The notes below the pieces were generated by a model. It worked only from the letters and a program-made list of their open reading frames with translations. It was not told the origin of the DNA and ran no database searches. Source: Deltaproteobacteria bacterium (lineage in GTDB: Bacteria > Desulfobacterota > Desulfobaccia > Desulfobaccales > 0-14-0-80-60-11). Taken from it: a stretch of 47,268 nt of DNA. The position numbers were made by a program, and so were the translations under genes. How positions within the stretch are numbered: position 1 is the first letter of the stretch; each line of letters opens with the position of its first letter. This document shows, one piece after another, positions 21,311 through 40,865 of the stretch. The stretch is taken from NCBI GenBank assembly GCA_030655955.1, contig JAUSOZ010000187.1:1-47268 (forward strand). The letters are read 5' to 3'.

Positions 21311-22135
21311 ATGGATAATCCCGTCGCAATCGCCGATTTTTGGATAGGTTCCGGCGACCTGGTCATGATCGCCGGGCCTTGTGTCATCGAGTCCGCCGAG
21401 CTTACCCTGGCCATCGCCCGCACCCTGAAAGACTATGCCGCCGAGCTCAACCTGCCCCTGATCTTCAAGGCCTCCTTTGATAAAGCCAACCGCACCTCCC
21501 TGACCTCTTACCGCGGTCCCGGTTTGAAAACGGGCCTGGAAATCCTGGCCCGGGTGAAAGACGAAGTGGGCCTGCCGGTGATCTCGGACGTCCATCAGGT
21601 CTCCGACGTGGAACCGGCGGCGCGGGTCTTGGACGTCTTGCAGATCCCGGCCTTTCTCTGCCGCCAGACCGACCTCTTAGTGGCCGCAGCCCAAACCGGC
21701 AAGGCGGTCAATATCAAGAAAGGCCAGTTTATGGCCCCCTGGGACATGGGGCCGGTGGTGGACAAGGTTTTTGCCACGGGCAACCGGCGGCTGCTGCTCA
21801 CCGAACGGGGCGCCATGTTCGGCTACAACAACCTGGTGGTGGATTTCCGCAGCCTCCCCATCATGCGCAGCCTGGGCTGCCCGGTGGTCCTGGACGTAAC
21901 CCACAGCGTTCAACTGCCCGGAGGGCAGGGGTCGTGCTCCGGCGGCCAAAGGGAGTACATCCCCTTGCTGGCCCGGGCCGGGGTGGCCGCGGGGGTGGAC
22001 GCCTTGTTCATGGAGGTCCATCCGGACCCGGACCGCGCCCGCTGTGACGGCCCCAATTCCCTGCCCCTGGCCCAGGTCCTGCCCCTGTGGCGGCAACTGG
22101 CGGCACTGCACCAGGTGCTCCGGGGGCAGGAGTAA
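21311..22135 (+). CDS. kdsA: 3-deoxy-8-phosphooctulonate (KDO-8-P) synthase
   Basis: Full-length match to the KdsA pattern: AGPCVIES, FKASFDKANRTS, LQIPAFLCRQTDL, NIKKGQF, DVTHSVQLPGG. Confidence 0.9.
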   Translation: MDNPVAIADFWIGSGDLVMIAGPCVIESAELTLAIARTLKDYAAELNLPLIFKASFDKANRTSLTSYRGPGLKTGLEILARVKDEVGLPVISDVHQVSDVEPAARVLDVLQIPAFLCRQTDLLVAAAQTGKAVNIKKGQFMAPWDMGPVVDKVFATGNRRLLLTERGAMFGYNNLVVDFRSLPIMRSLGCPVVLDVTHSVQLPGGQGSCSGGQREYIPLLARAGVAAGVDALFMEVHPDPDRARCDGPNSLPLAQVLPLWRQLAALHQVLRGQE

Positions 22136-30011: not shown

Positions 30012-30088
<77 letters not shown>

Positions 30089-30331: not shown

Positions 30332-31588
30332 TTATCCGAGGGGCTCATCCTTAAGATCAATCTCACCGGCGGCAGCCAGGTCACCTTTGAGGTGGGGCAG
30401 CGCCGAGAATATCAGCACCGCCCCGGCAGCCAGGGCCACCAGGGTGAGGGAGACGCCCCATTTGAGGCTGGCCAGGTCCGAGACCCAGCCGATGAGCAGC
30501 GGGGAAGGCACATCTCCCACCAGGTGAATGACCACGATGTTCAGAGCCACCGCCTGGGCCCGGCGCCAGGGGCCCGCCACGCTCACCACCACCGCGGTGA
30601 GCACCCCGGGGTTCAGGAACAGGAGGAAAATCGCCCCGGCCAGGGCCGGAATATAGAGCGCCGGGGCCGCCACGAAGATGACCACCGCCGCCAGGGGGAG
30701 AGCCAGCACAATTCCCAGACCACTCACCCATAGGGGGGCTCTTAGGGTGTAGCTCAGCAGGCGAGACCCCAGGAACCCGCCGGTCAAAATCCCCAATCCT
30801 CCCGCCCCAGCCACTGAAAAAGATAATATTTGGTTGGCCTGGGCCAGGGTGAGCCCCTTGACTTCGTGCAGATAGATGGGCATCCAGAGTGCCAAGCCCC
30901 CCAGGGCAAAGGTCACCATGCCGTAGCCCAGGGTTACCCGCCGCAGGGTGGGAACCTTGAAGAGCCCCCAGTAAGCCGTCAGGGGGGACCACGTGGTCGT
31001 GACGGTTGTGCCGGCCGCCGGCTCCGACCTGACTTCACGTAAGAGGAAAATCAGCCCGGCCATGGCCAGCCCCGGCAGGCCGGCCAACAGAAAGGCCGGA
31101 CGCCAGCCCCAGGAGTAGGTGCCCACGAGCTTGCCCACCATATAGGCCAGGGCGGCGCCCAGGGGCAGGGCCAGGTAAAACAGGCCCAACGCCCGGGACC
31201 GGCGCTTCATGGGCAGGAGGTCCGCCAGGTAAGCCGGGGCCAGGGTGCCGAAAGAGGCCTCTCCCACCCCCACCAGACCCCGGGCCGCCACCAGGAAGGG
31301 ATAAGACGGCACCCAGAAGGTCAGGCTGGTGGCCAGGCTCCACAACACCGCCCCGCCGGCCATGAGGCGGAGGCGGCCCCAGCGGTCCCCCAGGTAGCCG
31401 AACAGGGGCGAAGTCACGAAATATACCAGGATAAAGGCGGTCCCCAAAAACCCGAACGCGGTGTTGGATAAGCCCAGGTCGGCCTTCATCAAGGGGCCCA
31501 GAGAGGCCACCAGGTAGCGGTCCAGATAGTCCAGGAGGTTGAGGCCGGTGAGGATAAGCAGGGCTCGGGTGGTCAGGGACATGGACAT
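30332..31588 (-). CDS. MFS transporter
   Basis: A 418-aa protein with about 12 TM segments and the MFS loop motif GYLGDRWGRLRLM. Confidence 0.8.
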   Translation of the reverse strand: MSMSLTTRALLILTGLNLLDYLDRYLVASLGPLMKADLGLSNTAFGFLGTAFILVYFVTSPLFGYLGDRWGRLRLMAGGAVLWSLATSLTFWVPSYPFLVAARGLVGVGEASFGTLAPAYLADLLPMKRRSRALGLFYLALPLGAALAYMVGKLVGTYSWGWRPAFLLAGLPGLAMAGLIFLLREVRSEPAAGTTVTTTWSPLTAYWGLFKVPTLRRVTLGYGMVTFALGGLALWMPIYLHEVKGLTLAQANQILSFSVAGAGGLGILTGGFLGSRLLSYTLRAPLWVSGLGIVLALPLAAVVIFVAAPALYIPALAGAIFLLFLNPGVLTAVVVSVAGPWRRAQAVALNIVVIHLVGDVPSPLLIGWVSDLASLKWGVSLTLVALAAGAVLIFSALPHLKGDLAAAGEIDLKDEPLG

Positions 31589-31599
31589 GGGTCGGACTT

Positions 31600-32508
31600 T
31601 TACCTGGCGTCAATAATGGGCAGGCGCGCCGTCTTTTCCCGGTGGGCCTTTACGTCAGGATCGTACCACAAAAGATTCCGGCCCTTGACTTCGCTGACAT
31701 CCCGGGCCCGATACCATCTCCTCCTGTAGGGAAAAGAGGGCACATAGCCATAACCGGCTAAAAGTTCCTGGATTTCGTGCTTATCCGTTCCCGAGGCCGC
31801 CAGGGTTTCGGCTTTCATTTCTACCAGCACCAAGGGCCGGGAAACCGCCAGCATCTCCCGGGCGCCCCGGAGCACAAATAATTCCGCCCCCTCCACATCG
31901 ATTTTGATAAAGTCCGGGCCGGGCAAACCATGCGATGGGGCGAATCCGTCCAAAGATACCGTCCGACAGATTTCCTGGGCCGTTACCTCAGGCCCGGCGC
32001 CGTATAAGCTGGCGCAGCCATCGGCAGTCTCGGCAGCCAGATGCAGGGCCGCCTCCCCTTCCCGGTCGGTCACGGCCAGGTTAAAGGTGGTTATATTGCG
32101 AAAAGGATTGAGGCCAATATTGTCCATGAGCCTGGCATAGGCCACCTGGCCCGGTTCAAAGGCAATAACCCGGCCGCTCTGCTGCAAGGTCGCCGCCGCC
32201 AGCAACGCAAAGTAGCCGATATTGGCCCCAATGTCCCAGAAGATTTCGCCTTTATCCAGCACGCGGCGAATCATCTTCGCTTCATACCTTTCGTCATAAT
32301 CCCCGTAAAAATACATGCGCCGCTGCACCGCATCCTGTAAATCGAGCTTCATGGCGAAGCCGGCATCCAGGGCCACGGTAACGAAACGCTCGGGCGGGGT
32401 GAGCCGCGGGGACAGGCGTTGGTAGAAGAACGTCTTGCCGTCCCGCAGGGGAAATTTGCGCAGGTACCAGCGGAGGATATCGCGGCTTGTAGAGGAAAAC
32501 CAATGCAT
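31600..32508 (-). CDS. FkbM-family methyltransferase
   Basis: FWDIGANIGYFALLAA, VIAFEP and FIKIDVEGAE blocks. The start is set at ATG 32508 because the longer ORF overlaps the aroA 3' end. Confidence 0.75.
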   Translation of the reverse strand: MHWFSSTSRDILRWYLRKFPLRDGKTFFYQRLSPRLTPPERFVTVALDAGFAMKLDLQDAVQRRMYFYGDYDERYEAKMIRRVLDKGEIFWDIGANIGYFALLAAATLQQSGRVIAFEPGQVAYARLMDNIGLNPFRNITTFNLAVTDREGEAALHLAAETADGCASLYGAGPEVTAQEICRTVSLDGFAPSHGLPGPDFIKIDVEGAELFVLRGAREMLAVSRPLVLVEMKAETLAASGTDKHEIQELLAGYGYVPSFPYRRRWYRARDVSEVKGRNLLWYDPDVKAHREKTARLPIIDAR

Positions 32509-32542
32509 GGCTCGGCGTCCCAGGACGGTGAGAAAATCCAGG

Positions 32543-33796
32543 TTAGAGCTGCTTAAAAAACTGCCAGAAATCCGGGAAAGATTTGGCGACGCACTCGGGG
32601 TCCTCAATGGCCACGCCCGGGATCTTGAGGCCAGCCACCGCGAAGCTCATGGCGATGCGGTGGTCGCTATATGTGTGAATGACCGCTCCCTTAGGTGTTC
32701 CCCCCCGGATGACCAGGCCGTCTGGGGTTTCCCGGGCCTCGATGCCCAGCTTGCCCAGCTCCGTCGCCACCGCATGCAGGCGGTCCGACTCCTTGTGGCG
32801 CAGGTGGGCCACCCCGGTGATAACGGTGTCGCCTGCCGCGAAAGCGGCCAGCACCGCCAGGGTGGGGACCAGGTCCGGCATGGTAGACATGTCCACCGTG
32901 ACCCCCTGCAGCGGTCCGCCCTGAACCGTCAACCCCGACGGGGTAGATTCGATGGTGCAGCCCATCCGCCCCAACACCTCGGGGAAGGCCGCATCGCCCT
33001 GGCTGGACTCCAGGCTCAGGTTGGTGATGGTGACCCGCCCGCCGGTTAGAGCCGCCGCGGCCCAGAAATACGAGGCGCTGGAGGCGTCGGCCTCGATGAC
33101 ATAGTCCTGGGGCAGATAACACTGGCCGCCGGGAAGCTCAAACAAGCGGTAGCCTTCCCGGTAATAAGAGATGCCAAAATCGCCCAGCACCTCCAGGGTC
33201 AGGTCCACGTAGGGCCGGGACACCAGCTCGCCGGTGATTTCGATTTCCAGGCCCTTCGGCGCCAGGGGCCCGATGAACAGCAGGGCCGAGAGGTACTGGC
33301 TGCTGATGGCTCCGGAAAGCTGGGCTTTGCCACCGGTGAGGCCGCCGGTGACCCGCACCGGGGGGCAGCCGTCGCCTCTCTCGGAGACGGCCCGGACCCC
33401 CGCCTGGCCCAGCGCCTCCAGCAACTCCCCCAAGGGCCGCTGGCAGAGGCGCTCGGTGCCGGTCAAGAGATACTCGCCCTCTCCCAAGGCCGCCAGGGCC
33501 GTGAGGAAGCGCATGGAGGTGCCGGAGTTGCCCAGGTAAATGGGCAGCGGCGCCGGCAGCCAGCGGCCGCGGCGCCCTGTTACCCGGATGGTAGTGCCCT
33601 GCCAGTCGATCCCGGCCCCCAACTGCGCCAGGGCGGCGGCGGTGAGTTCGGTGTCTTCGGCGGCCAGGGCGTTGGTGAGGATGCTTTCCCCCGCGGCCAG
33701 GGCCGCAGCCATCAAGGCGCGGTGGGTGTAGCTCTTGGACCCGGGCAGGGTGAGAGTGGCCTGGACTTGCTTACAGGGGGTGATTTCTTGGGCCAT
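32543..33796 (-). CDS. aroA: 3-phosphoshikimate 1-carboxyvinyltransferase (EPSP synthase)
   Basis: LPGSKSYTHRALMAAALA, LGNSGTSMRFL, and DHRIAMSFAVAGL near the C-terminus. Confidence 0.95.
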   Translation of the reverse strand: MAQEITPCKQVQATLTLPGSKSYTHRALMAAALAAGESILTNALAAEDTELTAAALAQLGAGIDWQGTTIRVTGRRGRWLPAPLPIYLGNSGTSMRFLTALAALGEGEYLLTGTERLCQRPLGELLEALGQAGVRAVSERGDGCPPVRVTGGLTGGKAQLSGAISSQYLSALLFIGPLAPKGLEIEITGELVSRPYVDLTLEVLGDFGISYYREGYRLFELPGGQCYLPQDYVIEADASSASYFWAAAALTGGRVTITNLSLESSQGDAAFPEVLGRMGCTIESTPSGLTVQGGPLQGVTVDMSTMPDLVPTLAVLAAFAAGDTVITGVAHLRHKESDRLHAVATELGKLGIEARETPDGLVIRGGTPKGAVIHTYSDHRIAMSFAVAGLKIPGVAIEDPECVAKSFPDFWQFFKQL

Positions 33797-33937: not shown

Positions 33938-34756
33938 CTACGGCTTCGTTCCCAAAGCCTGATAAGCGGCCCGGGCCATGACCTCCGCCGGGGCTTCTTG
34001 ACCCGTCCACAGCTCAAACTGGGCCGTGGCCTGGTGAATGAGCATCTGGAGGCCGTCGATGGTGGCGCAGCCATGCACCTCAGCTTCCCGGAGCAGCCGG
34101 GTTTGTAAGGGCTGGTAGACGATATCCATGACGACCTCAAAACGGCCCAGCCGGTCCGGGTCGATGGGAATGCCGTCCAGATCCGGAGCCATGCCCACGG
34201 GGGTGGCATTCACCAGGATGGTGGCGGGGCAATCCCCCACGGTGTTCAAGGGGATGGCTTCGCCCCCCAAATCTTTGACTAAAGCCGCGGCGCGGGCTTG
34301 GTCCACATCCGTCAGGCTGACCCGGGCCCCTTTCTGGATAATGCCATAGGCGATGGCCCGGGAGGCGCCCCCGGCCCCCAGGATAAGGACATGCCGCCCC
34401 TTGAGGCCGACTTTGGCCGTGAGCGCGGTCACCGCCCCCAGCCAGTCGGTATTGTAGCCGGTGAGCCGGCCGTCCCGGTTGACCACGGTGTTCACCGCCC
34501 CGATCCTGCCGGCCTGGGGGTCCAGGTCATCGATCAGAGGAATAATCTCTTCCTTAAAGGGGATGGTGACGCTCACCCCGCCGATCCCCAACCCCCGGAG
34601 GCCGGACACGGCCTGGGCCAGGTCGGTGACCGGAAAGGCCACGTAGGCCGCATTGATCCCCAGGTGGCGGAAGGCGGCGTTGTGCATGACCGGGCTCAGG
34701 GAGTGGGCCACGGGCCGCCCCAGGATGCCGAAGATTTTTGTCTGGCCGTTGATCAT
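33938..34756 (-). CDS. aroE: Shikimate dehydrogenase
   Basis: ILGRPVAHSLSPVMHNAAF, VTIPFKE, GAGGASRA. The start is set at ATG 34756 (MINGQTK). The upstream part of the ORF is the translation of a family B repeat. Confidence 0.9.
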   Translation of the reverse strand: MINGQTKIFGILGRPVAHSLSPVMHNAAFRHLGINAAYVAFPVTDLAQAVSGLRGLGIGGVSVTIPFKEEIIPLIDDLDPQAGRIGAVNTVVNRDGRLTGYNTDWLGAVTALTAKVGLKGRHVLILGAGGASRAIAYGIIQKGARVSLTDVDQARAAALVKDLGGEAIPLNTVGDCPATILVNATPVGMAPDLDGIPIDPDRLGRFEVVMDIVYQPLQTRLLREAEVHGCATIDGLQMLIHQATAQFELWTGQEAPAEVMARAAYQALGTKP

Positions 34757-34780
34757 TTTGCGTGTGCCGCTGGCAGAGCG

Positions 34781-34830
34781 ATGGTGCGCAGTGCGCACCC
34801 TACACGGCTAACTGCTAATAGCTAACCGCT
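34781..34830. repeat. Family B hairpin plus family D repeat
   Basis: ATGGTGCGCAGTGCGCACCCTAC (34781..34803) and GGCTAACTGCTAATAGCTAACCGCT (34806..34830) lie between aroD and aroE. Confidence 0.75.
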
Positions 34831-35545
34831 ACTTTAAAGTGTTCCACACCCGCTTGAGGTCGTTCACCGTGAGCTGGCCCGGGGCCGAGGCCCTTTGTTT
34901 GCTGAAAGGGGCGAAGGTAAGCCAACTCCCCAAAAGCGGCGCCGCGAGCCGGGACCATTTCCCCAACGGCCCCATGCAAAAGGCAATGACGTCCTTGCCT
35001 TGGGCCTGAGCCCGGGGGATGAGGGAGAGCATCCGCAGGTTGTCGGCCGGCTCCCGGGCCAGGGCCACCAGTTTGACCACGTCGGCGTCCGCGGCCAGAA
35101 TCTCATCTAAGACCGCGTCCAGCCGGGCCGCGTCCGGGGTGCCGGCAAAGTCGTGCCAGGACAGGATGAGCCGGGTCTTGCCCCGGCGGGCCCAAATCTC
35201 CCGGCGGAAGCTCGCGTCCGCGGCCAGTTCCACATCCAGGCAGGTCACACCCAGATCCAGGGCTTGCGCCAGGAGGGCCAAGCGTCCCACCTCAGTCCCG
35301 GTCCAGCGCCCGCCTTCCGCAGCCATGCGGTTGGTGGCGATCACCGGCCCCGGCAGGCTCCGGAAGAGTTTTTGTAGGTCCGGGGCCGGCTCTTCCAGAT
35401 AATCCAGGCGGATCTCGGTCCACAAGCCCTTGCGCGCCGCCCGCTGGTACTTGCCCCGGGCCCGGTTGACCGTGGCCTCAACCACCGGCACGCAAATGCG
35501 GAGAGAAGGTTTCCGGTTTTCCGTTTTCTGTTTTCTGTGGGGCAT
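34829..35545 (-). CDS. aroD: 3-dehydroquinate dehydratase, type I
   Basis: LRICVPVV, a DYLEEP-type block, DVVKLVALA, and a C-terminal APGQL. The start is ambiguous between ATG 35545 and GTG 35560. The first ~10 codons are encoded by a heptamer repeat array. Confidence 0.8.
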   Translation of the reverse strand: MPHRKQKTENRKPSLRICVPVVEATVNRARGKYQRAARKGLWTEIRLDYLEEPAPDLQKLFRSLPGPVIATNRMAAEGGRWTGTEVGRLALLAQALDLGVTCLDVELAADASFRREIWARRGKTRLILSWHDFAGTPDAARLDAVLDEILAADADVVKLVALAREPADNLRMLSLIPRAQAQGKDVIAFCMGPLGKWSRLAAPLLGSWLTFAPFSKQRASAPGQLTVNDLKRVWNTLK

Positions 35546-35658
35546 TTTCCTTGATGACACGTCCTTTTTGAAATTTAAACATGTTGAATTAATTACAAAT
35601 TACCACGAATTCTTCCAGGTGAACGTTACCCCCTAACGGAAAACGGAAAACAGAAAAC
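35516..35658. repeat. Inverted arrays of three 7-nt-spaced GAAAAC units flanking a 103-bp AT-rich spacer
   Basis: GTTTTC occurs at 35516, 35523 and 35530. GAAAAC occurs at 35639, 35646 and 35653. A further two-unit GAAAAC array lies at 14755..14767. Confidence 0.75.
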
Positions 35659-35660
35659 GG

Positions 35661-36761
35661 TCAACTGAGGTTCTCCACCCCGGCGGCCCGGGGAAAGGAG
35701 CCCAGGAGTTTGAAGTGGGCGCTGATGGCCTCCACTTCCTCCAGGGCCTGCCCTACCTGGGTTTCGGTGGTGTGGCCGTCCACGTCCACAAAGAACAGAT
35801 AGCGCCAGGCCTCGTTTTTGGCCGGTCGCGAGACGATGCGGGTCATGTTGAGTTCCCGTTCCGCCAGGGGGCGCAGGGTTTTATACAGGGCCCCGGGGAT
35901 ATTGTCCACCGCAAACAGGATGGAGGTCTTGTCCTTGCCGGTGGGTCCGGGGGCATCAGCCCCGATGACAAAGAAGTGGGTGACGTTGCCGGGGTTGTCC
36001 TCGATGCGGGCCTCCACCACCCGCAGGTCATACAGGGGCGCGGCGAAGGCGCTGGCAATGGCCGCGGCGTTGGGGTTTTTGGCCGCCTTCTGGGCCGCCA
36101 CCCCGGTGGAGGCCACCTCCAGGATGGGAATATCGCCCAAATGGGTCCCCAGCCAGCGGCGGCACTGGGCGTGGGCCTGGGGGTGGGTGTAAATGACCTC
36201 GATATCGGCCCGCTGCCCGGACTTGGACACCAGGTCGTGAGACACTTCCAGATAGATTTCCCCGCAGATCTTCACCGAGGTCTCGGCAAACAGGTCCATG
36301 GAGATGTTGACGATGCCTTCGGTGGAATTCTCGATGGGCACCACCCCGTATTGGAACTTGCCCTTCTCCACTTCGGTAAAGACCTCCTGGATAGTACTCA
36401 TGGGGCCATAGCGGGTGGCCCGGCCGAATTTTTTCAGGGCCGCCAGGTGGGAGAAGGTGGCCTCGGGCCCCAAAAACGCCACCCCGAAGGGCATCTGGAC
36501 CTCCCGGGCGGCGGAGATGATCTCCCGGAAGATATTGCGCAGGGCCGAGGGGCTCAAGGGGCCAGGGTTCAGGTGCATGAGATGGGCCAAAACTTCCTCT
36601 TCCCGCTGAAAATCCAGGGTGCCCCGGCCTTCCCGGTTTTTGATGCGCCCGATGGCCTGGGCCAGGGTCTGGCGCTGATTCAGCAGGTTCAGGAGTTCCT
36701 GGTCCAGGGCGTCAATCCGGCTTCGGATGGCTTCTTTTTCCGTTTTTTCCATAATAGTCAT
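35661..36761 (-). CDS. pheA: Bifunctional chorismate mutase / prephenate dehydratase (P-protein)
   Basis: N-terminal CM helix IDALDQELLNLLNQRQTLAQAIGRIK, PDT domain VAFLGPEATFSH, and a C-terminal ACT region. The ATGA overlaps the upstream stop. Confidence 0.9.
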   Translation of the reverse strand: MTIMEKTEKEAIRSRIDALDQELLNLLNQRQTLAQAIGRIKNREGRGTLDFQREEEVLAHLMHLNPGPLSPSALRNIFREIISAAREVQMPFGVAFLGPEATFSHLAALKKFGRATRYGPMSTIQEVFTEVEKGKFQYGVVPIENSTEGIVNISMDLFAETSVKICGEIYLEVSHDLVSKSGQRADIEVIYTHPQAHAQCRRWLGTHLGDIPILEVASTGVAAQKAAKNPNAAAIASAFAAPLYDLRVVEARIEDNPGNVTHFFVIGADAPGPTGKDKTSILFAVDNIPGALYKTLRPLAERELNMTRIVSRPAKNEAWRYLFFVDVDGHTTETQVGQALEEVEAISAHFKLLGSFPRAAGVENLS

Positions 36762-37768
36762 TTCTCCAGGATGGTTTCCTGGATTTTGTGGCCGAAGTGG
36801 CGGCCCGTCTCTTCCAGGGCTACCAGCACTTCATCCCCAGGTTGTAACGTCACAATGGACACGGCCTCGCCGCTGGCGCGGGTGAGGCGGATGGTTTCGG
36901 CGTTCTGCAAAATGGTGGCGATCTCCCGGCCGCCGGCGTCGGCGGCCACCAGCATCAGGGGGCGGCGCTCCACCTTGACCCGGCCCACCACCGCCGGGGT
37001 GGTGCGCCCCTGGTGATTAACCACCAGGACTTCGTCCCCGGCCGCCAGTTCCCCCAGGTACCTGGTCTTGTCCCCGGTGACCCGGATATAGGCGTGCACG
37101 GGTCCGGCGTTGACCCTAAAGGGCCGGGGGGCGACATAAGGGTTTTCCAGGGATTCGGCATGCACCAGGAACAGGCCCCCGGAGGAGTTGCCCACCAGCA
37201 TGCCCTCCCCCAGGCCCAGGTTGCTGCAGGTATCGACGCAGACCCGGTCGCCCATCCCCAGGGGCTTAAGTGAGGTGATCCTGGCGGTGGTCAAGGTCAC
37301 CGGCGGTGAGGCTTCTTTCACCAGGCGGGCGATTTTTTTGATCATAGCCGGCGTCGCCTCGGTAACCACCAGGCCGTCCACCCCTTTTTCCAGCACCCCC
37401 AGGGCGGTGCGGGCCGCGTCCTCATCGCTGACCTCAACGAAGATGTTGTGCGTCTGGGCCACCAGGTTTTCCAAAGGAATGATGCTCCAGTCGGGGGTGT
37501 GCACCACTACCGGTCCCTGGCGGGCCAGGCGGATGACCTCGGCCTCATCGGCGGTACTTGAAATCGCCACTTCCTGGACGTCTCGGCCCGGCACCAGGTC
37601 GCCGTCCGGCGCCACCACAGTGATGAGCCCCAGGGCCTTAACCGCCTCGGTCCGGCCTTGGGGAACCCACACTGCGTCCGCCCCGCTCTCCAGGGCAGTG
37701 GTCACGAGCTTTTTGTCCCAGGGGTCAACTTTGACCCATAGCTGTTTCATAGCGGCGTCCCGGCTCAC
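36758..37768 (-). CDS. 3-dehydroquinate synthase II (archaeal-type)
   Basis: [29 protein letters not shown] and the overall ~336-aa layout match the DHQS-II family and are unrelated to AroB. A 4-nt overlap links it to the upstream gene. Confidence 0.85.
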
Positions 37769-38562
37769 ACTGTCTGCAAAAACGACAGGGCTTCTTCGAC
37801 GCCGGAATTTTCATTCACGATCATGCTGATCGCCCCCACCATGCGACTGGGGTCACGGTGCTGGAAGACATTGCGCCCGATGGATACCCCGGCCCCCCCG
37901 GCCTCGATGGCCCCCTGGACCATCTCCAGAATGTCCCGGTCCGAAGTCATTTTGGGGCCGCCAGCAATGACCACCGGCACCGGGCAGCCGGCCACCACCT
38001 TACGGAACGACTCCACCGAACCGGTGTACGAAACCTTGACGATGTCCGCCCCCAGTTCCGCCCCCAGTCGCGACACATGCATGATCACCTGGGGGTCGTA
38101 TTCATTCTCGATTTTCTCGCCCCGGGGGTACATCATGGCCAACAGCGGCATGCCCCATTCCCGGGCCTGCCGGGAGACCCGGCCCAGATCGGACAGCATC
38201 TCCTGATCGGAGCCGTTCCCCACGTTGACGTGAATGGAGAGGGCGTCCGCCCCCAGCTTGATGGCTTCCTCCACGGTGCACACCAGGGTTTTGGCATTGG
38301 GATGGGGTGACAGTGAGGTGGAAGCCGACAGGTGAATGATCAACCCCACGTCCTTGCCCCGGCGGCGATGGCCGCTGGACACCAGCCCCTTGTGGATCAG
38401 AATGGCATTGGCTCCGCCGCTGGCCACCGCATTGACGGTAGTCTTCATGTCGATGAGGCCTTCAATGGGGCCAACCGTGACGCCGTGATCCATGGGCACG
38501 ATCACCGTGCGCCCCGTGTCCCGGTTCATGATGCGTTCCATACGAATCTGTTTGCCGACCAC
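37765..38562 (-). CDS. 2-amino-3,7-dideoxy-D-threo-hept-6-ulosonate (ADH) synthase, class I aldolase family
   Basis: [53 protein letters not shown] aligns by eye with the N-terminus of the archaeal ADH synthase/DhnA family. The start is set at GTG 38562, preceded by GGGAGGAG. The ORF-track ATG at 38649 would cover the leader terminator. Confidence 0.8.
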
Positions 38563-38617
38563 TTTCTCCTCCCTCGCCGCAGTGCCTGAGAGGGCCTGAG
38601 ACCCCACGGCCGCCGAT

Positions 38618-38653
38618 AAAAAAAGCCGTGGTCGCCTCGCCTGCGCCACGGCT
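38618..38653 (-). terminator. Intrinsic terminator inside the 5' leader of the shikimate operon (attenuator)
   Basis: The minus strand reads AGCCGTGGCGC-AGGCGAG-GCGACCACGGCT followed by seven T (the first T pairs with the 5' A). It ends about 55 nt before the GTG of the first enzyme gene. Confidence 0.7.
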
Positions 38654-38703
38654 TTTAAAAGATTTTTTTTCCTGTGCCTACATTCTTTTAAAAGTCGAGG
38701 CGC
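38643..38703 (-). promoter_or_regulatory. Candidate antiterminator helix
   Basis: GCGCCTCGACTTTTAAAAG (38703..38685, spanning the leader stop codon) pairs at 17 of 19 positions with CTTTTAAAAGCCGTGGCGC (38661..38643). The latter contains the terminator's 5' arm. Confidence 0.55.
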
Positions 38704-38771
38704 ACTCCCGGCCCGGTAAAATAATAATAGCTAAAATAAAAGTTCGGGGTCCGGGACCAGCTGGATTGCAT
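38688..38771 (-). CDS. Aromatic-rich leader peptide (27 aa)
   Basis: ATG 38771 has GAGGAA 11 nt upstream. The product is [27 protein letters not shown], with 7 Phe/Tyr in 8 consecutive codons. It is below the ORF-track length cutoff. Confidence 0.65.
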
Positions 38772-38796
38772 TTTATTGATTTCCTCGACTTTTATA

Positions 38797-38825
38797 ACCC
38801 TAAAATATTCATCTCCCGGTGTCAA
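38797..38825 (-). promoter_or_regulatory. Candidate promoter for the leader/shikimate operon
   Basis: The minus strand has TTGACA, a 17-nt spacer, then TAGGGT. The -10 is poor, so this is low confidence. Confidence 0.25.
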
Positions 38826-38951
38826 TAAAAATTTTTTTGTCTTGACGGTAATTATGATATGCTGAAACTTATGGAGGCGTTGATTGGCTGGGGTTAAAGG
38901 GCCATCGGCGTTTCATGGGTTGGGCAGCCGCCTGCCCAAATTGGCGGGACT

Positions 38952-39542
38952 ATGGAACCCCCCCCCGATCAGCGCAGCTTCATCTGGATTATCGACAACG
39001 CCGATAAGATTGTCCACGTCAACGATAATTGGCTGGCTTTCGCCCGAGAAAACCGCGCGCCCCAATTAATGGCATCCTTGGTCCTGGATCAACCCATCTG
39101 GCGTTTTATTCAGGGGAAGGAAACCAGCTATTTATACCAACAGATTTTCAGCCGGGTCCGCGCCGGCGTCTCCCCGGTCAAATTTCCCTTCCGGTGTGAC
39201 TCCCCCGATTGCCGGCGGTTCATGGAAATGGAACTTGCCTTATTACCCGGCGATGCCATCCAATTCACAGCGCACATGCTCCGGGAGGAATGGCGTGACC
39301 CCGTAGACCTCTTGGATGCCTCCCGGGATAGATCCGGGGAATTCCTGAAAATCTGCAGCTGGTGCAAGAAAATCATTATTCCGGGGCGCAGCTGGGGGGA
39401 GATCGAGGCGGCCATCGCCGCCCTGGACCTCTTTGGCCACCACTCGATGCCCCAGATGACCCACACCATCTGTGATTCTTGCCGCGGTGCTCTCAGCCTG
39501 GAGTTAAGTGAGGAGTCGGGAGAAAAGCCGAATTTCGACTGA
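38952..39542 (+). CDS. Hypothetical PAS-like protein with C-terminal CxxC...CxxC motif
   Basis: A 196-aa ORF. The N-terminal ~110 aa look PAS-like (WIIDNADKIVHVNDNWLAFARE). The tail reads ICSWCKKIIIPGRSWGEI...THTICDSC. Confidence 0.6.
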   Translation: MEPPPDQRSFIWIIDNADKIVHVNDNWLAFARENRAPQLMASLVLDQPIWRFIQGKETSYLYQQIFSRVRAGVSPVKFPFRCDSPDCRRFMEMELALLPGDAIQFTAHMLREEWRDPVDLLDASRDRSGEFLKICSWCKKIIIPGRSWGEIEAAIAALDLFGHHSMPQMTHTICDSCRGALSLELSEESGEKPNFD

Positions 39543-39639
39543 ACGCGACCGCACCAGGCCCAGGCGGGCGGCCGGGCAAGACGCCGGCCTTTGTCCGGCT
39601 GGCTGGCCGGTTCGACCCGGAGACCATGAAGGAGGCGGC

Positions 39640-40278
39640 ATGCCCCGCACCGATGATTATAAGACGGCCCTCGCCCTGGCCGTGGCAGAATTGAAACCCC
39701 TCAACCCCAAGCGCCTGGAAAACCGAACCGGCGCCCAACACTTTGTCGACTCTTCCCAAGAGGGCCTCACCCTGCCCTATTTCGGCCAGGATCGGCGCAT
39801 CACCTGGCCGGAGGTCAGCGTCACCCCGGGCAGCGGCGCCGGCGAAATTTCCCTCCCGGAGCAGATCCTCATCCTCCACTACCTGCTCAAGGCCTCGGGA
39901 GAGCCTCTCACCGGCCGGAGCATCGATTTCCGCCAGGTCCCGGAAGGCGGGTTTTACTGGTCCGCCTTCGTCTCCCGGGCCCAAAAGCCGTTGCTCTCGA
40001 CCTTCGGGTCCGACCTGCCGCTCTACGTCAAGGTGGCGGCAGCCCTGGGGGGAGAACCCCTGGACCTGGGCGATGCCTCCGCCCGGTTTATGGCCTTTCC
40101 CCGGGTGCCCATCACCCATGTCTTGTGGGGCGGAGACGAGGAATTTACCCCCGAGGCCACCATCCTGTTCGATGAAATCATCCCCGGGTATTTCCCCACC
40201 GAGGACATCGCCGCCCTCGCCGGCGCCTCGGTCTACCGCTTGATGGGGGCGGCGCACCAATTCCGGCAGAGCCGCTAA
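39640..40278 (+). CDS. DUF3786-like protein
   Basis: GAAGGAGG lies 5 nt before ATG 39640. The block ILILHYLLKASGEPLTGRSIDFRQVPEGGFYWSAFVSRA matches my recollection of DUF3786. The upstream part of ORF 39508 is an implausible Arg-rich extension. Confidence 0.55.
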   Translation: MPRTDDYKTALALAVAELKPLNPKRLENRTGAQHFVDSSQEGLTLPYFGQDRRITWPEVSVTPGSGAGEISLPEQILILHYLLKASGEPLTGRSIDFRQVPEGGFYWSAFVSRAQKPLLSTFGSDLPLYVKVAAALGGEPLDLGDASARFMAFPRVPITHVLWGGDEEFTPEATILFDEIIPGYFPTEDIAALAGASVYRLMGAAHQFRQSR

Positions 40279-40518: not shown

Positions 40519-40865
40519 GGGGGCGTAACGGCTTCGACGTGAATAGAGAACTGTAAGTTGCATGCCGAGGTCCTGTCCGCTCGTTAAACGGGTAGGAAAA
40601 CCATAAGTGCCGACAACTACGGCTACGCTCTAGCCGCTTAAGGCTAGCATCTGGGGCTCGACGCCGGGAGAGGGCCCTGAGATGACGATATCCTGGCAAA
40701 GCTGCCAATAACGCCTGCGGGTTGGCGGACAAAAACTAAGCGGGCTAGCCTCTAAGAATTCTGCCAGCGGAAGTCTTCAGGGGCGAAACTAAAACGCCGG
40801 CTAAGCATGTAGAAGCTTCCAGGGACTATTGGCGGACGCGGGTTCGACTCCCGCCGCCTCCACCA
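40519..40865 (+). ncRNA. ssrA: tmRNA
   Basis: The 5' GGGGGCGTAACGGCTTCGACG and the 3' GGACGCGGGTTCGACTCCCGCCGCCTCCACCA form a tRNA-Ala-like acceptor with a G3-U pair. The tag reading frame GCC GAC AAC TAC GGC TAC GCT CTA GCC GCT TAA (40609..40641) encodes ADNYGYALAA. Confidence 0.95.

Follow-up and report, generated by a model that had tools for sequence, protein, structure and literature searches.

The described systems closest to the element reported here are the pheL-pheA attenuator of Escherichia coli and other gamma-proteobacteria (Rfam Phe_leader; Zurawski 1978 and Gavini & Pulakat 1991, as cited in PMC11802643), the trpL attenuator of the E. coli trp operon (Yanofsky 1981, as cited in PMC11802643), and the aroR leader peptide upstream of aroF, the gene for 3-deoxy-D-arabino-heptulosonate 7-phosphate (DAHP) synthase, in Corynebacterium glutamicum (Neshat et al. 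2014, as summarised in PMC11802643). For aroR, only Phe limitation is reported to matter in the summary given there. In this study, we analyzed a 47,268-nt stretch of DNA from a Deltaproteobacteria bacterium of the order Desulfobaccales (contig JAUSOZ010000187.1, assembly GCA_030655955.1). This whole stretch is called the window below. An earlier note, made from its letters alone, had described a Phe/Tyr-rich leader peptide with competing terminator and antiterminator helices upstream of a shikimate operon and had read it as ribosome-mediated attenuation. Our analysis supports this reading: all the elements described are present and beyond chance, and both the conservation of the open reading frame (ORF) and the covariation in a sister family were positive. 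The leader is very probably a classical ribosome-mediated transcription attenuator that ties the shikimate/pheA operon, which opens with the aldolase gene aroA', to the supply of charged tRNA-Phe and tRNA-Tyr.

All leader and operon coordinates are on the minus strand of the window. The order of the elements was checked along this strand from 38860 down to 38560:

38825..38820, minus strand: predicted -35 hexamer TTGACA, read from the sequence
38802..38797, minus strand: predicted -10 hexamer TAGGGT, 17 nt past the -35 hexamer
38790..38783, minus strand: region 1, AGUCGAGG, at the predicted RNA 5' end, overlapping the Shine-Dalgarno (SD) sequence of the leader and pairing with region 2
38771..38688, minus strand: leader ORF, 27 codons plus TAA, with ATG at 38771 and TAA at 38690-38688
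38741..38718, minus strand: regulatory codon run FYFSYYYF, 7 Phe/Tyr in 8 codons
38703..38684, minus strand: region 2, GCGCCUCGACUUUUAAAAGA, which contains the leader stop codon, forms the antiterminator 5' arm and can pair with region 1
38662..38643, minus strand: region 3, UCUUUUAAAAGCCGUGGCGC, pairing with region 2 (antiterminator) or region 4 (terminator)
38635..38618, minus strand: region 4 (GCG-A-CCACGGC) and U7 tract, forming the terminator with 38656-38643

The ORF, its SD and the aromatic run all lie where the earlier note had placed them on the minus strand. Translation of the leader is predicted from its own SD, GAGGAA (38786-38781), which stands 9 nt before the ATG, and a conserved promoter-like site lies upstream. 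The aromatic run is exceptional within the window: an 8-codon stretch with at least 7 Phe, Tyr or Trp codons occurs once in the six frames of this 47-kb, 60%-GC sequence, namely in the leader, and the same density was reached in 0 of 30 shuffles of the window. The Phe and Tyr codons of FYFSYYYF all end in U (UUU or UAU); across the six operon genes, the counts are 20 for UUU and 28 for UUC, and 16 each for UAU and UAC. The amino acids of the run match the cargo, as the operon encodes the common aromatic pathway plus pheA. A lone Trp codon stands at leader codon 5 (38757-38759, minus strand), 5' of the Phe/Tyr run, and is kept in most leaders of the Desulfobaccales type; a ribosome stalled there would probably not free region 2. 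The Trp codons of Desulfovibrio-type leaders are placed within the aromatic run itself.

The run is conserved far beyond the window. We compared 149 loci: 66 from genomes and 80 from metagenomes, fetched around aldolase relatives, and three contigs that encode an aroA' protein assigned by UniRef to Desulfobacca acetoxidans (L067-L069). The genomes closest to the window are metagenome-assembled genomes (MAGs) of Desulfobaccales. A run of at least 7 aromatic residues in 8 codons was found upstream of aroA' in 100 of the 149 loci (750 kb, six frames). All 100 runs lie 60-300 nt upstream of the aldolase gene and on its strand, and no such run occurred elsewhere in the six-frame translation of these 750 kb. 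The conservation of the Phe/Tyr run, which the earlier note had put forward as a test of its reading, is thus positive. A homologous leader ORF is present in all Desulfobaccales-type loci that extend far enough upstream, and L068, one of the three Desulfobacca contigs, bears the same leader (MPSWQSPCFFSYFYYFWGLRCASTFKRP). Leader ORFs of the same kind but unrelated sequence are present in Desulfovibrio-type and Syntrophobacter-type loci, in Desulfobacterales and in Aquificota MAGs (for example MLTRIRRTFFFGFYFFRHACGLGVTL, MQSLINPTAGFYFWFWFSHARGLGRGAV and MTNFSLNHSLYFFWYFYFSRACGLRGLL). The peptides vary in sequence and length and show synonymous as well as Phe-Tyr codon exchanges, but the Phe/Tyr/Trp run is always kept. 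Within the clade of the window, the tail of the peptide is read in two frames over identical DNA (...GPGVRLDF* versus ...ECASTFKRM*). Hence, the tail is constrained as RNA and the run as codons, which is the pattern that an attenuator would predict.

Some loci in this set deserve separate mention. In the MAG MFD01476.bin.2.41, an identical leader and aroA' start are present on two contigs (L010 and L011), reflecting either a duplication or redundancy of the assembly. In four deltaproteobacterial MAGs from seeps or hydrothermal sites (L035, L037, L040 and L044), a very short ORF that reads MMFFAFFD(T/A)S and includes 4 Phe within 6 codons is conserved about 190-220 nt before aroA'. The terminator search used found no convincing terminator at these four loci, and this ORF may represent a different leader type.

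Two competing helices follow the aromatic run. The terminator consists of the 5' arm AAAAGCCGUGGCGC (38656-38643), a 7-nt loop (38642-38636) and the 3' arm GCG-A-CCACGGCUUUU (38635-38621), and ends in U7 at 38624-38618. The hairpin starts 34 nt past the leader stop codon and lies between the leader ORF and aroA', 56 nt before the GTG start. It has a free energy of -22.3 kcal/mol and a z score of -3.9, and 0 of 200 shuffles folded as well. A simple terminator scan of the window did not report it, apparently due to the bulged A. The antiterminator pairs 38703-38684 with 38662-38643 at 18 of 20 positions (-23.2 kcal/mol, z -3.5), again with none of 200 shuffles folding as well; scored as a duplex, it reached z -4.4 against 300 dinucleotide shuffles of the upstream arm. 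Because both helices use 38656-38643, they exclude each other. These competing helices are nearly isoenergetic, as would be expected of a switch that is decided kinetically.

The position of the codon run relative to these helices fits the proposed control. There are 13 nt from the last Phe/Tyr codon to region 2, and the leader stop codon lies inside region 2. With the usual ribosome footprint, a ribosome whose A site holds the last Phe/Tyr codon (38720-38718) should protect the RNA to about 38708 and leave 38703-38684 free, and a ribosome at the stop codon would bury region 2. Our calculations agree with the earlier note in several respects. The terminator it had drawn at 38653..38618 is confirmed as a hairpin at 38656-38621 with its U7 tract, stable beyond shuffles. 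Its antiterminator, with 17 of 19 positions paired, is one base longer at each end here. The mutual exclusion it proposed follows from the shared strand, and its picture of a segment left free by a stalled ribosome and masked by one at the stop codon agrees with the computed positions. A further hairpin around the Phe/Tyr run, CUGGUCC (38760-38754) with GGGCCGG (38714-38708), appears in the minimum free energy (MFE) fold and looks compensatory in a few relatives; we dropped it, as it is unpaired in many others.

We add here an element that is absent from the model of the earlier note, region 1. Its sequence, AGUCGAGG, is the exact complement of CCUCGACU (38700-38693) in region 2, and its last bases begin the SD of the leader. 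The helix of regions 1 and 2 (1:2) is present in both the MFE and the centroid structure of the untranslated leader of the window. The MFE fold of this leader (38790-38618; -51.4 kcal/mol) combines 1:2, which closes a long stem around the whole ORF, with the terminator, and forcing the antiterminator on the same RNA gives -46.2 kcal/mol, a cost of about 5 kcal/mol. The combination of 1:2 and terminator is the MFE fold in 30 of 30 Desulfobaccales leaders (the window and 29 relatives). The 1:2 duplex has a z score of -3.5 in the window. As both of its sides never vary in the clade of the window, region 1 lacks covariation there: the motif GTCGAGG is the same in every one of 29 aligned leaders. 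Some members of the Desulfovibrio-type family have region 1 within the first leader codons, and a compensatory exchange was observed in this family (CCCUCA with UGAGGG versus CCUCCA with UGGAGG).

The placement of region 1 at the RNA 5' end depends on the promoter. The pattern TTGACA-17/18 nt-TAnnnT was found in 31 of the 34 Desulfobaccales-type loci, and the distance from the end of the -10 hexamer to GTCGAGG is 6-8 nt in all 31 loci that have the motif. In the window, the -10 hexamer ends 6 nt ahead of AGUCGAGG and 7 nt ahead of GUCGAGG, and from its position transcription is predicted to start near 38790. The earlier note had held that a transcription start downstream of 38688 would speak against its reading; the predicted promoter lies instead upstream of the ORF. 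Region 1 likely makes termination the default of the untranslated leader, a role that rests on this predicted start of transcription.

To follow the helices through evolution, we used an alignment of 29 sequences from the clade of the window and one of 54 distinct leaders from the Desulfovibrio-type sister family. Terminators of the latter were located by a fold-based search, as a regular expression missed one third of the loci. In the clade of the window, regions 2, 3 and 4 do not change, nor does GUCGAGG; variation is found in the flanks, in the spacer and in the hairpin loop, which differs in both length and sequence. Pairing was kept in 99%, 99% and 94% of the alignment cells, with 99% for the terminator (29 relatives). 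One A-U to U-A exchange was observed in one sub-clade, and A-to-G changes keep a G-U pair in both alternative helices. The sister family is far more variable. Its antiterminator is paired in 83% of cells, versus 38-48% with slid partners, and 9 of its 15 pairs are changed on both sides, one of them taking the forms UA, UG, CG, AU and GC. This covariation score was reached by 0 of 500 shuffles. The terminator of the sister family is paired in 94.5% of cells and has 6 compensatory pairs. The mutually exclusive helices are therefore supported by sequence evolution in the sister family rather than in the clade of the window.

Other leader types show the same arrangement. In seven independent ones (L042, L045-L048, L054 and L058), 6-11 nt separate the last aromatic codon from the antiterminator arm. 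The arm reaches to the stop codon or close to it, with this codon inside the arm or at most 9 nt off, and the antiterminator has z scores of -2.6 to -5.1 against shuffles. The stem core GCC-R-Y-GG ... CC-R-Y-GGC is common to the leaders of Desulfobaccales, of the Desulfovibrio and Syntrophobacter types and of Aquificota MAGs. Across loci L001-L149, the GCCRYGG core lies 50-115 nt upstream of aroA', and elsewhere in about 550 kb we found it only at two chance sites in coding DNA. Common descent together with horizontal spread of the operon with its leader would explain the shared core, as would a sequence-specific constraint.

We propose the following mechanism. Transcription would start near 38790. 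On a leader without a ribosome, 1:2 and the terminator (3:4) would form and RNA polymerase would terminate at the U7 tract, with about 56 nt left to the start codon of aroA'. When Phe and Tyr are plentiful, the ribosome would reach the stop codon inside region 2 and cover this region, and the terminator would form. When Phe-tRNA or Tyr-tRNA is scarce, the ribosome would stall on FYFSYYYF and open the 1:2 stem that encloses the ORF. The stalled ribosome would end about 13 nt short of region 2, which, freed by the stall, would pair with region 3; no terminator would form, and polymerase would read into aroA'.

The operon under this putative control comprises six genes between 38562 and 32543:

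38562..37765, minus strand: aroA', 2-amino-3,7-dideoxy-D-threo-hept-6-ulosonate (ADH) synthase, a DeoC-family aldolase with a GTG start (Pfam)
37768..36758, minus strand: aroB', 3-dehydroquinate (DHQ) synthase II (Pfam)
36761..35661, minus strand: pheA, chorismate mutase-prephenate dehydratase with an ACT domain (Pfam)
35560..34829, minus strand: aroD, type I dehydroquinase (Pfam)
34798..33938, minus strand: aroE, shikimate dehydrogenase (Pfam)
33796..32543, minus strand: 5-enolpyruvylshikimate-3-phosphate (EPSP) synthase (Pfam)

These Pfam matches agree with the shikimate operon with pheA and archaeal-type DHQ enzymes that had been described from the letters, and the nearest relatives of the window aldolase are named ADH synthase. 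The GTG at 38562 is preceded by GAGGGAGGAG, with the SD at 38575-38566. The gene order aroA'-aroB'-pheA-aroD is the same in L067-L069. No second leader or terminator was found in the gaps within the operon (35661-35560 and 33938-33796). The upstream gene encodes a DUF3786 protein (39508-40278) and is divergently oriented. The spacer between the leader promoter and this gene (38826-39640 in the window) measures about 700-800 nt, versus about 350 nt in the Desulfobacca-like contigs L067-L069, and contains a 196-codon ORF (38952-39542, plus strand) with no Pfam match. The operon region is flanked by a tmRNA gene (40519-40865, plus strand; 190 bits) and a tRNA gene (30015-30088, minus strand). EPSP synthase is followed on the same strand by an ORF for an FkbM-type methyltransferase and by a major facilitator superfamily transporter (30332-32607, minus strand), and the methyltransferase ORF, taken from its listed TTG start, shares 65 nt with the EPSP synthase gene. 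Further away, a 274-residue protein of the DAHP_synth_1 family is encoded directly after CTP synthase (21311-22135, plus strand). This arrangement and its size suggest a 3-deoxy-D-manno-octulosonate-8-phosphate (KDO-8-phosphate) synthase, not a DAHP synthase.

Several observations weigh against attenuation as the full account of this leader. The -10 hexamer TAGGGT is poor, matching TATAAT at 3 of 6 positions where our scan required at least 4, and the consensus promoter scan did not list the TTGACA/TAGGGT site. The 1:2 helix is modest in the sister family, with a median z score of -0.86 and 9 of 52 leaders below -2. In the clade of the window, the helices are essentially invariant (0, 1 and 0 pairs changed on both sides) and covariation is uninformative. 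The covariation that the earlier note had looked to as a test was therefore positive for both helices in the Desulfovibrio-type family, whereas the relatives closest to the window could not speak to it, and the structural model draws its support from thermodynamics and from a sister family whose helices differ in sequence. In the more distant L033 and L041, no significant antiterminator was found with the hairpin chosen. The near-invariance of about 60 nt and a GCCRYGG core shared across phyla exceed the needs of a plain attenuator, and an extra constraint could be at work. Finally, we infer that transcription starts near 38790, that the ORF is translated, that ribosomes stall on it and that read-through responds to amino acid supply.

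Behind the terminator lies a segment whose place in the mechanism is uncertain:

38610..38576, minus strand: second GCCGUGG copy (38610-38604) and a possible partner, CUGCGGC (38582-38576)

The partner CUGCGGC adjoins the aroA' SD, and in the fold of the whole 241-nt region, region 4 pairs with the second GCCGUGG copy when region 2 takes region 3. In L041, L042, L046 and L048, two tandem hairpins with the same core are present upstream of aroA', and in L042 only the second is followed by a U tract. The second copy and the tandem hairpins suggest a relay of alternative hairpins, and 38610-38576 may serve as a relay past the terminator or may modulate the SD. Region 4 and the U tract (38621-38635) are also complementary to the SD/start region of aroA' (38548-38575), GACCAC with GUGGUC and the U tract with GGAGAAA. 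We keep these post-terminator helices (4:E, E:F and U tract with SD) only as a side observation, as relatives do not agree on them and most do not outscore shuffled sequences. In a bolder picture, to which we give only a small chance of being right, the leader would belong to a single ancient RNA family that spread across phyla with the archaeal-type aroA'-aroB', its GCCRYGG/CCRYGGC arms forming either a relay of at least three alternative hairpins (2:3, 4:E and E:F), which couples the stall to termination and to access of the aroA' ribosome-binding site, or a frozen core read by a factor.

If these folds mattered most, translation of aroA' would be the main or an additional target of control: access to the ribosome-binding site would depend on how regions 4, E and F fold, and the U-tract hairpin would be only a weak terminator. 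The ability of the second GCCGUGG to pair with region 4 when region 3 is sequestered, the alternative partner next to the aroA' SD and the tandem hairpins of the same core all point this way, as does the complementarity of region 4 and the U tract to the SD and start, which has a z score of -3.0 in L068 (2935-3015) but only -1.4 in the window. We nevertheless consider this reading improbable. A hairpin of -22 kcal/mol directly followed by U7 is a canonical intrinsic terminator, the folds behind it vary among relatives without consistency and are mostly matched by shuffles, and a U tract can be expected to pair with purine-rich SDs in general. Moreover, such control would add a layer to attenuation, not replace it.

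The strict conservation could also mean that the GCCRYGG hairpin is read by a factor acting in trans, either an RNA-binding protein or a small ligand, which sets the switch, the ORF being incidental or secondary. The GCC-R-Y-GG core is indeed common to very different lineages and confined almost entirely to the leader position in about 550 kb, and the invariance of about 60 nt in the clade of the window is unusually strict for a plain attenuator. However, the hairpin loops differ freely in length and sequence, and the core itself shifts by compensation (GCCAUGG/CCAUGGC and GCCGCGG/CCGCGGC), which argues for pairing and not for recognition of a sequence. The only feature universal to the families is an in-frame aromatic run with an upstream start and a stop codon at region 2, and a switch set by a factor would not need the run. 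No riboswitch, T-box or other Rfam family matched the leader, and the three interdependent pairings (1:2, 2:3 and 3:4) could suffice to explain a frozen sequence. We therefore regard a factor-read hairpin as highly improbable.

That the ORF and helices arose by chance or as a by-product, such as the terminator of a neighbour or a repeat element, and have no regulatory role deserves practically no credence: the fold of the 241-nt region as a whole is not significantly stabler than shuffles (z -0.7) and simple scans gave neither promoter nor terminator, but the single helices are far beyond shuffles, the hairpin has no neighbouring gene to terminate because the upstream DUF3786 gene is divergent, more than 100 loci have the element in the interval from a conserved promoter-like site to the first gene of the operon, the aromatic run is confined to the leader position, and both helices covary in the sister family, so that the comparative sequence data rule this explanation out.

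The leader family is not represented in the resources we searched. Neither the window nor any of 9 related loci matched a leader, riboswitch or T-box family of Rfam at gathering score, and at E ≤ 10 no Phe_leader, other leader, riboswitch or T-box family appeared between 38500 and 38900. Weak matches to microRNA and small RNA families were set aside as merely reflecting the palindromic hairpin. Four leader peptides had no meaningful match in Pfam and NCBIfam at E ≤ 10, and gene callers miss the leader peptide, or leave it unnamed or call it 'hypothetical protein'. We found no description of the window leader in the searchable literature; surveys of attenuators in subscription journals lay outside this search, and an earlier description is possible. 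Neither Rodionov 2004, on delta-proteobacterial regulons, nor Naville & Gautheret 2010 mentions the leader, and our search found no account of the regulation of the shikimate pathway in anaerobes that enter it through ADH synthase and DHQ synthase II.

Overall, the mechanism appears to be classical, of the pheL, trpL and aroR type, and would not surprise a specialist, while the leader family appears to be uncatalogued and large. It is tied to the archaeal-type entry enzymes of the shikimate pathway in anaerobic bacteria. Our analysis gives a testable regulation for aromatic biosynthesis in Desulfobaccales, Desulfovibrio-type and related anaerobes. It would extend the leader-peptide attenuators by an uncatalogued family of more than 100 members whose runs mix Phe, Tyr and often Trp, and it offers a natural case of how about 60 nt of non-coding RNA can be frozen by three interlocked pairings. 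Annotation that misses the leader peptide or calls it hypothetical would be mended by a covariance model derived from our alignments.

Among known systems that choose between terminator and antiterminator upstream of aromatic biosynthesis genes, the T-box and TRAP of Firmicutes work without a leader ORF: the T-box senses uncharged tRNA directly and TRAP acts via a tryptophan-bound protein. The window leader differs from both in having an ORF with the cognate codons. With trpL it would share the logic in which 1:2 and 3:4 lead to termination and 2:3 to read-through, in which the untranslated default terminates and a stall at cognate codons frees region 2. It differs from trpL in its amino acids and its unrelated sequence, in a predicted 1:2 helix that encloses the entire ORF and sequesters the SD, and in that the AU-rich part of 2:3 (CUUUUAAAAG with CUUUUAAAAG) stays in both states.

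The pheL-pheA attenuator resembles the window leader in its short ORF with a Phe run and in an intrinsic terminator that overlaps the antiterminator. It also places a chorismate mutase-prephenate dehydratase gene under the control of tRNA-Phe charging, and the window operon has such a gene. However, the Rfam searches showed no match between the two in sequence or structure. The run of the window mixes Phe and Tyr, to which the sister families add Trp, its cargo is a six-gene operon that opens with an archaeal-type ADH synthase and DHQ synthase II, and its region 1 is the predicted RNA 5' end, including the SD of the leader itself, and not a coding part of the leader.

The aroR leader, compared here by its description, has a run of only Phe-Tyr-Phe, versus seven of eight codons in the window, and regulates a canonical DAHP synthase in an actinobacterium. 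It shares with the window leader the use of Phe and Tyr codons and, by analogy for the window, the control of transcription of the first committed aromatic step through stalling of the ribosome. In purpose, by this analogy, the window leader would be closest to aroR-aroF of C. glutamicum.

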